A stretch of 32,000 bases of DNA from an uncultured Chloroflexia bacterium. Its GTDB lineage: Bacteria; Chloroflexota; Anaerolineae; Anaerolineales; Anaerolineaceae. Numbering within the stretch: position 1 is the stretch's first letter; each line of letters starts with the position of its first letter. The DNA lies in contig OY969938.1 of assembly GCA_963704755.1 (NCBI GenBank), positions 1,110,001 through 1,142,000 of the forward strand, written 5' to 3'. Under the pieces are notes generated by a model. That model did not search any database and was not told the DNA's origin. It was given only the letters and a program-made list of their open reading frames with translations. Below, piece by piece: positions 26,322 to 32,000 of this stretch. The position numbers and the translations under genes were made by a program.

Positions 26322-27335
26322 CTACGGGCAGCTCTGCAAGAAACCTTCCGTTTTTAGGAAGTCGCAGGCGACCTGATCGGGTTCCTGGCCATCGATATCC
26401 ACACTCTTGTTGAGGTTGGTCATCACATCGGTGGTCAGCTTGGCCGAGATCGGGTTGAGCACATCGGCGATACCCGGGTATTTATCCAGGACGTCTTTGC
26501 GCACAACCGGAGCCGGGTTATACACCGGGAAGAAGCTCTTGTCGTCCTGCAAATTAAAGAAGCCAAAAGCCGCGATACGGCCGTCGGTAGCAAAACCCAT
26601 CGCCACAGTACATTGGCCATCCCGAAGGGCCTTGTAAGTCAAGCCCGAGTCCATCAGGTTGACGTTGCTATCTGTGAATTGGAAGCCATACAGCGTTTCC
26701 ACGCCTTTGAAACCGTCCGGGCGGGCGTAGAACTCCTGGTCGGTGCACAGGCTGGCGTCGCCGCCGTTATTGATGTAATCCGCCAGGTCCGAGATGGACT
26801 TGATTCCCAGAGAATCCCCATTTTCCTGGGTCATCATCAGGGTGTAGGTGTTGTTGAAGGGGGCCATATCCAGCCAGATCAGGTTGTTCTGGGCGTCTTC
26901 GGCCTTGACCTTATCGTAGGCTTCCTGCGAATCGGTGATCGCGTCTTCGTGTCCCAGGTGGGTCAGCCAGGCGGTACCGGTATATTCCCAATACAGGTCG
27001 ATGTCGCCGTTAACCAGCGCTTCGCGGTTCACATTCGTGCCGCCCAGGTTGGTCTGGTCATCCACCTCGTACCCGGCATTCTTCAACGCCAGGACGGTCA
27101 TTTTTCCAAGCAGGATATTCTCGGTAAAATCTTTCGAACCGACCACAATGACACCACCGGAGGTATTATCGCTGGGTGCCGTTGGGGCAACCACTTCCGT
27201 AGCAGATGGCGCGGCAGCCGGAGGCTGCGTCGCTGGAGCTGTGGTGGGTTGGGGGGTTGCCGGGCTGGCACAAGCCGCCAGCAAGACAGTCAACAAAATG
27301 GCCAATGAAATAAGCACTCGCTTTTTCTTAATCAA
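26322..27335 (-). CDS. Glycine betaine/choline/carnitine-type ABC transporter substrate-binding lipoprotein (OpuBC/OpuCC family)
   Basis: 337 aa with a TTG start and AAGGAG 7 nt upstream. The lipobox is LLAAC. VVGSKDFTENILLGKM and DLYWEYTGTAW are present. Confidence 0.88.
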   Translation of the reverse strand: MIKKKRVLISLAILLTVLLAACASPATPQPTTAPATQPPAAAPSATEVVAPTAPSDNTSGGVIVVGSKDFTENILLGKMTVLALKNAGYEVDDQTNLGGTNVNREALVNGDIDLYWEYTGTAWLTHLGHEDAITDSQEAYDKVKAEDAQNNLIWLDMAPFNNTYTLMMTQENGDSLGIKSISDLADYINNGGDASLCTDQEFYARPDGFKGVETLYGFQFTDSNVNLMDSGLTYKALRDGQCTVAMGFATDGRIAAFGFFNLQDDKSFFPVYNPAPVVRKDVLDKYPGIADVLNPISAKLTTDVMTNLNKSVDIDGQEPDQVACDFLKTEGFLQSCP

Positions 27336-27488
27336 TTTCTTTCTCCTTCTTTCGGGTCAATCTGATCAGTTTGAGTCCGGGACAGGGATGGAACAAACGC
27401 TCTTGCAGCGTCCCGAACGAACTTTCCTTACAAACACAATTCACGACAGTACATGGATCAGGCAGGCTTTTCCGGCAACCACCTCCTT

Positions 27489-28274
27489 TCAGGTTAATCT
27501 TTCGGTATTGACCACCAGGTAATCCTGGATTTTCCCCAATATCCAATCGCCTAAAATCGCCAGGACGGCCGTCAGCACGGCGCCGACCAGCACCATGCTA
27601 TCCCGCCGCAGGGAAATTCCGGTAATGATGAAATTTCCCAGGCCGCCGGCCCCAATGAAAGCCCCCAGGGCAGCCGTGCCCACATTGATGACCACCGCGG
27701 TGCGCATCCCGGCAAACATGACCGGAAACGCCAGGGGCAGCTCGATGTCCCACAAGATTTGCAGCTTAGTCATCCCCATCCCGGTGGCCGCCTCGATGAT
27801 ATCGGGCCGGACGCCGGCGATACCGATCGCCGTATTCCGGATGATCGGCAGCAGGGCATACAGCCATAAGGCAAAGATTGCCGTGGTGGCGCCTAACCCC
27901 AAGATGCCCATGAACAGCGCCAGAATGGCAATGCTTGGCACCGATTGGCCGAAGTTAGCGATCGAGAGGATAATCCCGGAAAAATCACGGAATCCCTCGC
28001 GGGTGATCAAAATCCCGGCCGGTACGGCAGTCACGATCGCCAGTACCGTAGAAAACAAGATCAATCGCAGGTGGGCCAGGACCGTCCTGACGATATCGTT
28101 GAAACCGACCGCGCTGCTTCCAAGGATATTTTCTTCCATGCTGCCCGGCGCGATAGGCAGCAAAATATAGTAATACAGGAGTATCACCGTCAGGATGACA
28201 AGTATCGGGATAGCCGTCCAGCTAATCAGGTTCGAAATGGTTGCTTTTTTTAAATTGCCGGCTCGTGCTTTCAT
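27489..28274 (-). CDS. Compatible-solute ABC transporter permease (OpuBB/OpuCB-like)
   Basis: 261 aa and polytopic, with the BPD-transporter EAA-like region IEAATGMGMTKLQILWDIELPLA. Its start overlaps the ATPase stop. Confidence 0.9.
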   Translation of the reverse strand: MKARAGNLKKATISNLISWTAIPILVILTVILLYYYILLPIAPGSMEENILGSSAVGFNDIVRTVLAHLRLILFSTVLAIVTAVPAGILITREGFRDFSGIILSIANFGQSVPSIAILALFMGILGLGATTAIFALWLYALLPIIRNTAIGIAGVRPDIIEAATGMGMTKLQILWDIELPLAFPVMFAGMRTAVVINVGTAALGAFIGAGGLGNFIITGISLRRDSMVLVGAVLTAVLAILGDWILGKIQDYLVVNTERLT

Positions 28275-29431
28275 GCACTTTGCTCCTGGTGATTGTCATC
28301 ATCATCTCCATTAAACTTGCTTTCCGAAATCGTCTTCTGGATCATCTCGATGCTGACCACCCCATGGACCCGGTTTTTGCTATCGACGATACACACGCTG
28401 GAATAATCCATCATCAGCATCTCTGAAAGTGCATCCCGCAAAGTGGTAGAGAGTTCGACGCCCGTCTCCTGCTGGTCGATGTACTGCCCCACGGTGCCGT
28501 TCTTGCCGCGCAAATCTCGCCGAATCACACTGCCTTTCAGGCGCTTGTCGCTATCGGTGACAAAAAGAGAGGTTACTTCGCGTTCACGCATAAATGCCAA
28601 AGCTATCTCGGCCGGCTGTGTGTTCAATAACAAAGTGGGATCCGAATCCATGATGTCTTCGACCCGGATCAGGTTAAGCTGTTTCAACGCCCGATCGGCC
28701 CCGACGAAGTTTTCGACGAATTCGTTGCTGGGATTGGAAAGGATATTGGCCGGTGAATCGAATTGCTCCAGGTGGCCACCGACGTTCAAGATGCAGATCT
28801 TGTCACTCATCTTGATGGCTTCATCGATATCGTGAGTGACGAACAGGATGGTTTTCTTTATCTCTTTCTGCAAACGTAAGAACTCATTTTGCAGCAGGTT
28901 GCGGTTGATCGGGTCGATGGCCCCGAATGGCTCGTCCATCAGCATGATCGGCGGATCGACCGCCATACCCCGCGCCACCCCAATCCGCTGGCGCTGGCCG
29001 CCGGATAATTCGTGCGGGTAACGGTCCAAATATTCCAGGGGCATATTCATCATGTTCAGCAGGTCTTCGGCCCGCTGGCGGATCCGCGCCGGAGACCAGC
29101 CCAAAAGCTTGGGCACCGTGCCGATATTCTCCAAAATCGTGCGGTGTGGGAACAACCCGATCTGTTGAATGACATAGCCGATCTTGCGCCGTAACTGGAT
29201 CGGATTGGTGTCCATGACATTGACTACACTTCCCGCTTCGTCCCGCAGGTAGATGGCCCCACCGGACGGTTCGATCAAACGGTTCACCATTTTGAGGGTG
29301 GTGGTCTTACCACAACCGCTCGGTCCAACCAGGGTACAGATTTCACCGGTCGGCACCGTGAACGACAGATCATTGACCGCCTCAGCGGTGGACCCCGAGT
29401 ATATTTTCTTTAAATGTTCTATTTTAATCAT
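28271..29431 (-). CDS. Compatible-solute ABC transporter ATP-binding protein with C-terminal tandem CBS domains (OpuCA/OpuBA/ProV-like)
   Basis: 386 aa. It has Walker A GPSGCGKTT, signature LSGGQRQR and Walker B LMDEPFGAID. A CBS-like C-terminal ~120 aa follows. Confidence 0.93.
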   Translation of the reverse strand: MIKIEHLKKIYSGSTAEAVNDLSFTVPTGEICTLVGPSGCGKTTTLKMVNRLIEPSGGAIYLRDEAGSVVNVMDTNPIQLRRKIGYVIQQIGLFPHRTILENIGTVPKLLGWSPARIRQRAEDLLNMMNMPLEYLDRYPHELSGGQRQRIGVARGMAVDPPIMLMDEPFGAIDPINRNLLQNEFLRLQKEIKKTILFVTHDIDEAIKMSDKICILNVGGHLEQFDSPANILSNPSNEFVENFVGADRALKQLNLIRVEDIMDSDPTLLLNTQPAEIALAFMREREVTSLFVTDSDKRLKGSVIRRDLRGKNGTVGQYIDQQETGVELSTTLRDALSEMLMMDYSSVCIVDSKNRVHGVVSIEMIQKTISESKFNGDDDDNHQEQSA

Positions 29432-30996
29432 CCATTATTCCTTCGTTCTTTGAGCCCCGTTGGCGTCAAACGGTCTTGAATTATGCCCAAAATAAAATCG
29501 ACTATAACTGCCAGGACCGCGACGACAAACGCGCCGGTAATGTAGCGTACGTCCTGCGCGCGCTGGATACCGGTAAAGATGTAGTCACCCAGCGTATCGT
29601 TGCCGATAAAGGCTGCGATGGCGGCGATACCCACCAGCATGACCAGGGAAACGCGCAGCCCGGTCATGATGACCGGCACGGCCAGGGGCAGTTTCACCCC
29701 TATGAGCAATTGGAACTCGGTCATGCCCATGCCGCGCCCGGCTTCGACGATCTCCGGCTGCACTTCCTTTATGCCGGTATAAGTGTTGCGCAGGATCGGC
29801 AGTTGCGCGTAAAGGATCAGCGCAAAGGCGGCGTTGAATGCCCCGATCCCCAGCGGCTTGATCAGCACGCCGAACAAGGCAATGCTGGGGATGGTCAGGA
29901 TAATTCCGGCGACGTACAAAGTCAGATCGCTGGCCTTTTCACCGGCCAACAAAAGTACGTAAAGGATGGCCGTGAAGCCCATACCCAGCAGCCCGACCGC
30001 ATCCGGCTTACGAAGAATGGACCCCAGGATGACGAACACCTCGCCAAAAAATCCGTGGATGCTCTCCAGCGAACGGTCCCAGGCGCGCATGGTGGTTGCT
30101 ATCTGAGAGGCGCTTTCGGCCCCAAAAAGGCCCGAGGAAGCGGCCCAAATTACAAAAAAGATCAACACCGGGATCACAAAGACCAGATGAGAAATTTTTG
30201 GCCGGCGAGAAGGCATGGTAATCAATACGCCAATGACCACACCCACGATCACTGCAACCAGGATGGAGAAAAGAACCAGCCAGATGTGGTTCATCATCAA
30301 TTCTTGCAGATAGCCCCCACGCCATTGCGCGGAAAGGAAGGTCCACATACGGGTAATCAGGGTCTCCTGATGGGTTGTGAACATGATCGTCACCCGGACC
30401 GCTGCGTATATTCCGGCCAGGACACCCAATGCATACAGTCCGCGGGTCGCTTTGACATTATAAATCACACTCAAGGCAAACAGCAGCAGACCGGCCCCAT
30501 AAACCGCCAGCAGCAACAAGATTACCCCCAGGATACCGGTCAGGCTAAGTGGATTAAAAATGGCGCTCGCATCAAATCCAAAGGCTGAGCGGAGCGCCAA
30601 CAGCAGCAACAGTACCGTTCCCAACGGTGTAAGCAATGCAGCGAGCAAAGCACATTGGTCCGGGTAGGTTCCTGCACCTCCAAATAATTTCATTACTCCT
30701 AATAGCAGCAAATTGAACGTATAAAAACTGCCAACGATTAAAACGTAGCTGAACAGGATACCGATTACAACGTTTTGATGGCCAACTATTAGGGGGGTGT
30801 TTCCGACTGTATTTGCATACAAACCAACGAGTAATCCAAATATGCTTACCCCCAGGAATGTTTTAAGAAAATTAGCTTTTGAAATTTGATCGAGATATTC
30901 TTCCCGGTTGGGCCTGGTCAAGACCTGTATCCAACCGTCGAACATTCCACTCAAAAGCGTTGGCGGGCTTTGCTCAAGTTGTACTTCTCTAGGCAT
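29428..30996 (-). CDS. Compatible-solute ABC transporter permease fused to an extra N-terminal polytopic (Yip1-like?) membrane domain
   Basis: 522 aa, against ~215-260 aa for ordinary OpuCB/CD permeases. The C-terminal ~250 aa has the permease motif VEAGRGMGMTEFQLLIGVKLPLA. The N-terminal ~210-250 aa is a separate 5-TM-like domain beginning FDGWIQVLTRPNREEY. Confidence 0.85.
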   Translation of the reverse strand: MPREVQLEQSPPTLLSGMFDGWIQVLTRPNREEYLDQISKANFLKTFLGVSIFGLLVGLYANTVGNTPLIVGHQNVVIGILFSYVLIVGSFYTFNLLLLGVMKLFGGAGTYPDQCALLAALLTPLGTVLLLLLALRSAFGFDASAIFNPLSLTGILGVILLLLAVYGAGLLLFALSVIYNVKATRGLYALGVLAGIYAAVRVTIMFTTHQETLITRMWTFLSAQWRGGYLQELMMNHIWLVLFSILVAVIVGVVIGVLITMPSRRPKISHLVFVIPVLIFFVIWAASSGLFGAESASQIATTMRAWDRSLESIHGFFGEVFVILGSILRKPDAVGLLGMGFTAILYVLLLAGEKASDLTLYVAGIILTIPSIALFGVLIKPLGIGAFNAAFALILYAQLPILRNTYTGIKEVQPEIVEAGRGMGMTEFQLLIGVKLPLAVPVIMTGLRVSLVMLVGIAAIAAFIGNDTLGDYIFTGIQRAQDVRYITGAFVVAVLAVIVDFILGIIQDRLTPTGLKERRNNG

Positions 30997-31403
30997 CTAT
31001 TCTCCTTTCGAATAATAATTAAGTCAAAATATTGGCACGCAGATATACCATAGAGTACGATCGGGAAAAATTTGTCCGTGGCCTGGCCAAATTAAAATAG
31101 CAGCCACTTCCCATTCGTTTCGAAATGGAATCTTCGCTCTAAAAAACAGCAATCCAACTGAGCGATTGCTCCAAACTATGTCCCTCTACCGAAGAGGCTG
31201 GAGCATTGAAACGAGTAAGGTCACTTTATGGGTTCACCGAATTGCCAAACAAACCACAATGGCCTTATACGTCAGCAGGACACAAATACACCCCGGTACC
31301 AATAACCGTATGTGCCCTAAAATGTGTCCATCCGTAAAAGTTTTTAGAACAATTACAAAAATAATTATACACTGTTTTTTAGGGGTGCCAGGGGATAGAA
31401 AAG

Positions 31404-31424
31404 AGAGAGTAGAGAGTAGAGAGT
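31404..31424. repeat. Microsatellite (AGAGAGT)x3
   Basis: Three exact 7-nt units followed by a partial unit, in an A+T-rich spacer. Confidence 0.8.
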
Positions 31425-31485
31425 AGATGATTAGTCTAAAAAGAAGGCAATAAGTCGACAAGGCAACGAGGGGCACAGGGAAGGT

Positions 31486-32000
31486 TCGAAAATGCCTCCC
31501 CCATTGTTCTGCCCGGTCTCCAGACCGAGGCCGCTCTTCAACTTGACAAGGAAATTCTAACCAGGCAGGAAAATGCCTCCCCCATTGTTCGGCCCGGTCT
31601 CCAGACCGAGGCCGCTCTTCAACTTGACAAGGAAATCCTAACCAGGCAGGAAAATGCCTCCCCCATTGTTCGGCCCGGTCTCCAGACTTTGGAAAGGCGT
31701 TAGGAAGACGCCCCTCCCATTGTTCGGCCCGGTCTCCAGACCGAGGCCGCTCTTCAACTTGGCAAGGAAATCCTAACCAGGCAGGAAAATGCCTCCCCCA
31801 TTGTTCGGCCTGGTCTGCAGACTTTGGAAAGGCGTTAGGAAGATGCCTCCCCCATTGTTCGGCCCGGTCTCCAGACCGAGGCCGCTCTTCAACTTGGCAA
31901 GGAAATCCTAACCAGGCAGGAAAATGCCTCCCCCATTGTTCGGCCTGGTCTGCAGACTTTGGAAAGGCGTTAGGAAGATGCCTCCCCCATTGTTCGGCCC
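31486..32000. repeat. Hierarchical tandem repeat array running off the right edge. A ~40-nt core is followed alternately by a 41-nt or a 14-nt insert, giving units of 81 and 54 nt.
   Basis: The core is AGGAARATGCCTCCCCCATTGTTCGGCCYGGTCTSCAGAC. Core copies start (at ATGCC) at 31492, 31573, 31654, 31708, 31789, 31843, 31924 and 31978. The periods are 81, 81, 54, 81, 54, 81, 54. The two insert types recur nearly identically. Confidence 0.9.

Follow-up and report, generated by a model that had tools for sequence, protein, structure and literature searches.

An orphan 81/54-nt tandem array in an intergenic spacer of an Anaerolineaceae chromosome, read as a non-coding higher-order minisatellite

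Judged by its layout, the array described here has its closest known analogue in kind in the MIRU-type VNTRs of Mycobacterium. MIRU loci consist of tandem units in intergenic DNA, each between 40 and 100 bp long and with GC-rich inverted repeats inside it, and they also mix full-length and internally shortened variants of the unit. They are dispersed at about 40-50 loci per genome, lie inside operons and carry small ORFs that overlap the flanking genes. Minisatellites of this type are not found at the homologous site in related species (PMC3184786), and the same holds for the present array. Tandem direct repeats of a structured non-coding unit, all in a single orientation, are also found in the type III antitoxins toxI, cptI and tenpI, in which 31-62 nt units in 1.9-5.6 copies are followed by a terminator and the toxin gene (PMC3401426). 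Short units are tandemly repeated, too, in NsiR1 of heterocystous cyanobacteria and in LhrC1-5 of Listeria. The LhrC copies are separate genes, each with its own promoter and its own terminator. In NsiR1, a tandem sRNA array, there is likewise a promoter for every copy (PMC4030482), multicopy sRNAs are documented, and the UCCC loops of LhrC, RsaE and RNAIII bind Shine-Dalgarno regions (PMC4132741).

The array to be compared with these systems lies at the right end of a window of 32,000 nt, by which is meant the whole stretch of DNA that was analysed (contig OY969938.1, positions 1,110,001 to 1,142,000, from an uncultured member of the Anaerolineaceae). It runs from position 31488 to the window edge at 32000 in the order L(81) L S(54) L S L S, followed by a 27-nt partial unit, and its copies are 96-98% identical, with L+S as a higher-order super-unit of 135 nt. 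Tandem Repeats Finder gives a period of 81 over 31488-31687 (2.5 copies, 98% matches) and a period of 135 over 31567-32000 (3.2 copies, 96% matches). Together with the parsing of units, whose boundaries are set by anchoring on CCCATTGTTC, this bears out the order of 81- and 54-nt units and the 135-nt super-unit that had been given in a preliminary description made from the letters of the DNA. The inserts quoted there are also as stated, but the eight core copies that it counted are seven complete ones and an eighth that is truncated by the window edge. All units have their first 38 nt in common, GAAAATGCCTCCCCCATTGTTCGGCCCGGTCTCCAGAC, after which follows a tail of 43 nt in L and of 16 nt in S. 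The 26-nt core pattern occurs 7 times, while 0.00 occurrences are expected in shuffles, and from this it follows that the array is real and far beyond chance. The parsed units are the following.

31488..31568, plus strand: L unit 1, 81 nt; G>T at 31510 and C>T at 31556 are private to it
31569..31649, plus strand: L unit 2, 81 nt, consensus, with TTGACA
31650..31703, plus strand: S unit 3, 54 nt, core unchanged, tail TTTGGAAAGGCGTTAG, TAG at 31701
31704..31838, plus strand: units 4 and 5, together the first super-unit (L+S, 135 nt), with GAAGACGCCCCTCCC and TTGGCA in unit 4 and GGCCTGGTCTGCAGAC in unit 5
31704-31784 and 31785-31838, plus strand: unit 4 (L) and unit 5 (S), as parsed
31839..31973, plus strand: second 135-nt L+S super-unit, units 6 and 7; 3 positions differ from the first super-unit
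31839-31919 and 31920-31973, plus strand: unit 6 (L) and unit 7 (S), as parsed
31974..32000, plus strand: partial unit 8, 27 nt, cut by the window edge, so that the array extends past the window

With a partly palindromic repeat of about 38-40 nt that alternates with short intervening segments, the array resembles a CRISPR, and the preliminary description was right that it does so with invariant inserts. CRISPR spacers are unique and similarly sized, whereas here there are just two intervening sequences, of 41-43 nt and 14-16 nt, which recur unchanged in the order L L S L S L S, and the pattern is that of a nested tandem duplication. A CRISPR identity is rejected on these grounds. No cas-like genes are found among the large ORFs of the left 31.5 kb, which read as housekeeping.

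The window as a whole is an ordinary chromosomal stretch, in which the left 31.5 kb carries housekeeping genes only: a glycerol/dihydroxyacetone cluster (glycerol kinase, DhaK/L) with a sigma-54-type activator, a metal ABC transporter, pyrimidine biosynthesis genes and an osmoprotectant ABC operon. The window proteins form singleton clusters, all from a single contig of 4,871,623 bp, and the array is thus part of a closed or nearly closed genome and not an artefact of a contig end. It occupies the intergenic spacer upstream of the osmoprotectant transporter operon, about 490 nt from the nearest gene, and its surroundings contain the following features.

26322-30996, minus strand: four-gene osmoprotectant ABC operon, first ATG at 30996
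31364..31391, minus strand: promoter-like site CTGGCA-16-TATAAT with a TG extension, 10/12 matches, directed toward the operon and away from the array
31452..31487, plus strand: degenerate version of part of the L tail, with GTCGACAAGG... where the L tail has CTTGACAAGG..., adjoining unit 1 on its left, as read from the sequence

The promoter-like site stands in an AT-rich part of the spacer, and since it is directed at the operon the array is upstream of, and outside, that transcription unit. Some further observations concern the operon and its spacer in their own right. The operon leader (30997-31391, minus strand) comprises about 360 nt behind the apparently strong extended -10 promoter at 31391-31364, and at about 31169-31141, some 145 nt before the ATG at 30996, it contains a hairpin that resembles a terminator, GCAATC-9 nt-GATTGC with TGTTTTTT behind it. 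A c-di-AMP (ydaO) riboswitch often precedes such transporters. Rfam gives no match to the leader at 30997-31391, ydaO not being among the matches, and the leader may be an unclassified attenuator or riboswitch. A perfect microsatellite, (AGAGAGT) x 3.4, is situated at 31404-31427, between the divergent promoter region and the array. The gene next to the array (29428-30996, minus strand) encodes a permease of 522 residues, the C-terminal half of which is an ABC permease domain (PF00528). The N-terminal part is a long membrane region, for which some homologues have the annotation Yip1 domain (PF04893), and Anaerolineales relatives share this architecture. The permease has its nearest relatives in MAGs of Anaerolineales and Chloroflexota, with 49-76% identity.

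How the array grew can be read in part from its differences. Across its 513 nt there are only 9 variant sites. Units 5 and 7 are identical and the two L+S super-units differ at just 3 positions, which identifies the L+S pair as the latest duplicated unit; the most recent copies are, in other words, the most alike. To exemplify, consider the paired changes C>T and C>G that had been attributed to the cores before the short inserts. They are present in the S units at 31785 and 31920, as described, but the S unit at 31650 has an unchanged core, and the two S units that carry the changes are identical copies made by one 135-nt duplication. The paired changes therefore count as one event and not as recurrent co-variation. 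To the left of unit 1, the degenerate L-tail piece at 31452..31487 is, from its sequence, probably a remnant of the unique progenitor, a leftover of the kind that is expected from tandem duplication of a once-unique sequence.

We lean, with moderate confidence, toward reading the array as an intergenic minisatellite of higher order that is non-coding and specific to its lineage, that would have grown by slippage or unequal recombination and that is possibly transcribed. According to this reading, an 81-nt progenitor with a 10-bp GC-rich inverted repeat would have been duplicated in tandem, one copy would then have lost or replaced its 3' part to give the 54-nt S form, and the 135-nt L+S pair would now be amplifying, by replication slippage or by unequal recombination between near-identical copies. 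The array would have no dedicated sequence-specific function, and if it is transcribed by read-through, its hairpins would act generically as a structural element of RNA or DNA.

The comparison with known minisatellites points in the same direction. Tandem units in the range of about 40-100 bp, high identity between copies, the lack of a gene call and the lack of a coding frame are what is found here, and they are the marks of an intergenic minisatellite or VNTR. There is no sequence similarity between the array and MIRUs, however, and where MIRUs are dispersed, inside operons and overlapped by small ORFs, the present array has no second copy in 31.5 kb and stands upstream of the promoter of the nearest gene, at a distance of about 490 nt from that gene.

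A search for relatives gives a uniform answer. No further copy of the array is found in the remaining 31.5 kb of the window. The exact core pattern has 0 matches in genome, metagenome and viral collections, both insert patterns have 0 exact matches in the viral collection, and blastn with a 351-nt query finds no match among plasmids and phages. By blastn and Tandem Repeats Finder, a homologous repeat is absent from 49 loci that encode relatives of the neighbouring permease; these include syntenic ones, the best permease identity being 76% over a partial match and 61-62% over the full length. The array is thus an orphan, with no relative detected in the collections searched. One relative, an Anaerolineales-like metagenome contig (L027) with a permease that is 61% identical, has an unrelated purine-rich tandem repeat at 2427-2608 (period 60, 2.3 copies, 97% matches). 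This repeat precedes the homologous transporter gene by about 2.3 kb, with a large ORF in between. From the presence of this different intergenic repeat it follows that intergenic repeats come and go in the group.

An array with such regular periods may also be suspected of coding for a protein. The suggestion to be weighed is that it is a decayed or UAG-recoded gene for a protein with a 27-residue repeat, read in the plus frame that gives ENASPIVRPGLQTEAALQLDKEILTRQ (the ENASP frame), or that a gene on the minus strand, with its start beyond 32000, has its C-terminal repeats encoded here. In favour of this are the periods, all of which are multiples of 3 and of 27, the synonymous changes of the ENASP frame and the length of one open minus frame. 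The preliminary description found the coding signals to be in conflict, which is correct, and the analysis of each of them can be summarized as follows.

Codon usage was scored by a log-likelihood ratio, trained on 23 window genes, in windows of 45 codons. True windows have a mean of +0.40 (sd 0.19) and wrong frames a mean of -0.57. The six cyclic frames of the super-unit score from -0.97 to -0.02, and none of them exceeds the 3rd percentile of true windows; the two of them that are free of stops score -0.59 and -0.35, which corresponds to the 0th percentile. No frame of the array combines a start codon with the absence of stops. The ENASP frame has no start, and it is interrupted by an in-frame TAG in each S unit, at 31701, 31836 and 31971, exactly where these had been located before. 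Since TAG terminates 5 of the 23 window genes, the genetic code is the standard one and TAG an ordinary stop. Five of the nine variant sites are synonymous in the ENASP frame, in agreement with the earlier estimate of about half, but the minus frame 31999 also reaches 5, and a binomial estimate for at least 5 of 9 changes on one codon position gives p of about 0.15 before choosing among frames, so that the excess is not significant. When the 135-nt unit is shuffled, 72% of the shuffles have at least one open frame and 32% have two or more, which means that open frames in a unit of this length are expected by chance.

Two frames deserve a description of their own. The plus frame of phase 31382 is open from about 31631 to 32000, where the change TTGACA>TTGGCA converts TGA to TGG, and the other two plus frames are therefore not closed in every L+S unit, as had been stated. 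This frame reads as a Cys/His-rich repeat (GKCLPHCSA...), with codon usage that is non-coding-like and with no match in Pfam. On the minus strand, the frame 31234-31998 is stop-free for 254 codons, with no ATG, GTG or TTG, and takes in the array together with 254 nt of flank that is unique and AT-rich; the preliminary description was thus right about an open minus frame that lacks start codons, and it remains open down to the stop at 31234. About 1% of shuffles equal this open frame through array and flank. Its codon usage is poor, it has no homologues, and as a gene it would traverse the AT-rich promoter of the neighbouring operon. It is regarded as non-coding, though the anomaly is unexplained. 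An idea of small ORFs, encoding peptides of 22-40 aa that begin with MPPPLF..., was dropped, since unit 4 lacks the ATG and the codon usage is non-coding-like.

The protein searches complete the picture. A chimeric query of the six frames gives no match among 5.8 billion protein clusters, and as this collection includes the genome's own gene calls, no gene has been called across the array in any frame. This is also an indirect test of the outcome, foreseen in the preliminary description, that the array lies inside a long annotated ORF: no predicted protein of the genome covers it in any frame. Pfam has no match to any of the array translations. A full HMMER scan of the stop-free stretch of 71 residues in the ENASP frame against 1.84 billion representatives gives three weak matches, the best of which is a eukaryote-type IQ-repeat protein with 17% identity and a 27-residue period. 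The third, P0146, is a protein of 287 residues with 27-residue INRP repeats, of which about 9 residues are matched per unit. HMMER scores sum over repeats of equal period, and the matches are for this reason read as period resonance between unrelated proteins that share a 27-residue period; as homologues all three are rejected. P0146 is rejected also on its own account, as only a half-unit motif is matched and as its own sub-period of 13-14 residues is absent from the array. The array is non-coding. A decayed or recoded repeat-protein gene, as had been proposed, is largely refuted by the poor codon usage in every frame, the missing starts, the ordinary TAG stops and the lack of a homologue, and we rate it as very improbable.

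The question then is what the array would do as RNA or as DNA, and this depends on its predicted structures, of which two inverted repeats are the most prominent.

31590..31612 (example), no strand assigned: L-unit inverted repeat of 10 bp, GGCCCGGTC-TCCA-GACCG-A-GGCC, in all four L units; the S units lack the 3' arm
31776..31814, no strand assigned: inverted repeat at the junction of L tail and S core, ACCAGGCAGGAAAATG / CATTGTTCGGCCTGGT, around CCTCCCC; repeated at 31911-31949

In plus-strand RNA the dominant predicted helix of the L unit is the 10-bp hairpin GGCCCGGUC-UCCA-GACCG-a-GGCC, with z = -2.5, in accordance with the GC-rich hairpin of the preliminary description. At the junction, the GGCC(U)GG of the S unit is predicted to pair with the preceding L tail in a stem of 13 bp with two mismatches (ACCAGGCAGGAAAAUG / CAUUGUUCGGCCUGGU), which would display CCUCCCC in a loop of 7 nt. 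The motif has a predicted unpaired probability of about 0.6-0.9 in the S units. CCTCC and TCCC each occur 8 times on the plus strand and 0 times on the minus strand, and the window genes use GGAG-type ribosome-binding sites, from which it follows that a plus-strand RNA would carry repeated loops of anti-Shine-Dalgarno type. The C-rich UCCC motifs by which LhrC binds ribosome-binding sites resemble this predicted loop.

These features are the basis for an alternative in which the plus strand gives rise to a multi-module regulatory RNA, transcribed as one precursor with a set of hairpins in each module. In one version of it the CCUCCCC loops of the S modules would pair with the GGAGG sites of target mRNAs, as C-rich sRNAs do, and in another the precursor would be processed to single units, by which a partner protein is neutralised, in the manner of type III antitoxin repeats. 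Documented precedents are Shine-Dalgarno-binding UCCC loops (PMC4132741), tandem sRNA arrays (PMC4030482) and tandem repeats in type III antitoxins (PMC3401426). The folding z-score of the array is also low, at -3.1 on the plus strand, but the minus strand, which has wobble-dependent helices of its own, folds equally well with -3.2; for the super-unit the two values are -2.8 and -2.2.

By C>T at 31811 and 31946, in units 5 and 7, an A.C mismatch becomes A-U in the plus-strand RNA of the stem between L tail and S core. Predicted pairs are kept or improved by three of the nine variants; two others swap G-C and G.U, in either direction, in predicted helices, and one breaks a terminal pair. Nine variant events are too few, however, and cannot establish covariation, for which an array that has no homologues offers no other material.

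A test by sigma-70 consensus finds no sigma-70-like promoter within 31488-32000 on either strand, nor is there an intrinsic terminator in this interval, and no such promoter is seen upstream on the plus strand. NsiR1 copies each have a promoter, whereas neither a sigma-70-like promoter nor an intrinsic terminator is found in the units here, and the array thus does not consist of consecutive sRNA genes that are complete in themselves, as NsiR1 does. It also differs from the type III antitoxins: there are two length classes of units, of 81 and 54 nt, the sizes of 81 and 135 nt and the number of at least 7.3 copies are outside the known ranges, no terminator is found, and in the minus orientation the next gene after the array encodes the ABC permease and not a toxin. 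Rfam has no match at gathering score anywhere in the window. Over 30950-32000, a threshold of E up to 10 brings only matches at the level of noise, the sole one over the repeat units being dauA, which has 17 bits where its gathering score is 45. Genes for tRNA or tmRNA are not found. The idea of a CsrA sponge was dropped, as GGA motifs are equally common on the two strands (14 and 16). A multi-module regulatory RNA is, with all this taken together, a possible but unlikely explanation. Its boldest form is that the array represents a new composite RNA gene in Chloroflexota, with a repeated two-part module of 135 nt and CCUCCCC loops, which would repress translation or serve as a sponge, or else would be processed to an antitoxin for a partner protein encoded just beyond the window; this we think quite unlikely.

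That the two strands fold alike is what a DNA-level inverted repeat predicts, and the array might accordingly be one of protein-binding sites, either centromere-like, iteron-like or titrating a regulator, in which the core palindrome GTCT-NN-AGAC would be recognised by a dimeric protein encoded to the right. Every core contains GGTCTCCAGACC or GTCTGCAGAC, the palindrome being perfect as GTCTGCAGAC in two S units, and the direct repeats are regularly spaced. The palindrome is short, however, and imperfect in 5 of the 7 complete cores, and the left 31.5 kb is chromosomal housekeeping DNA with no par, rep or integrase gene. The cumulative GC skew declines steadily along the window, which means that there is no origin or terminus here. 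The known units of centromeres and iterons are about 7-43 bp long, and those of the array are far longer. An array of this kind is a rather remote prospect.

The reading as a non-coding minisatellite, to which we return, has evidence against it as well. Both unit lengths and the difference between them are multiples of 27, which a neutral minisatellite does not predict; the chance of multiples of 3 alone is estimated to be about 1 in 9. On inspection no 27-nt sub-periodicity is seen inside the unit, and S can be aligned to L only by way of several indels with a net length of 27 nt. The regularity is unexplained under every reading. The minus frame that is open through the array and 254 nt of flank, as in about 1% of shuffles, is a second point against it, and the third is the number of well-formed predicted hairpins together with the variants that would keep their pairs, as a functional RNA would show.

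The array is a cautionary case, in that an intergenic nested tandem duplication can mimic a CRISPR, a repeat-protein gene and an array of structured RNAs at the same time, and in that open frames and seemingly synonymous changes in such a repeat are within chance. Its importance would be greater if it is transcribed and processed. Almost nothing is known, to our knowledge, about regulatory RNAs in Anaerolineae, and a repeated module with an anti-Shine-Dalgarno loop would, if true, be a simple and testable regulator of translation or a sponge.
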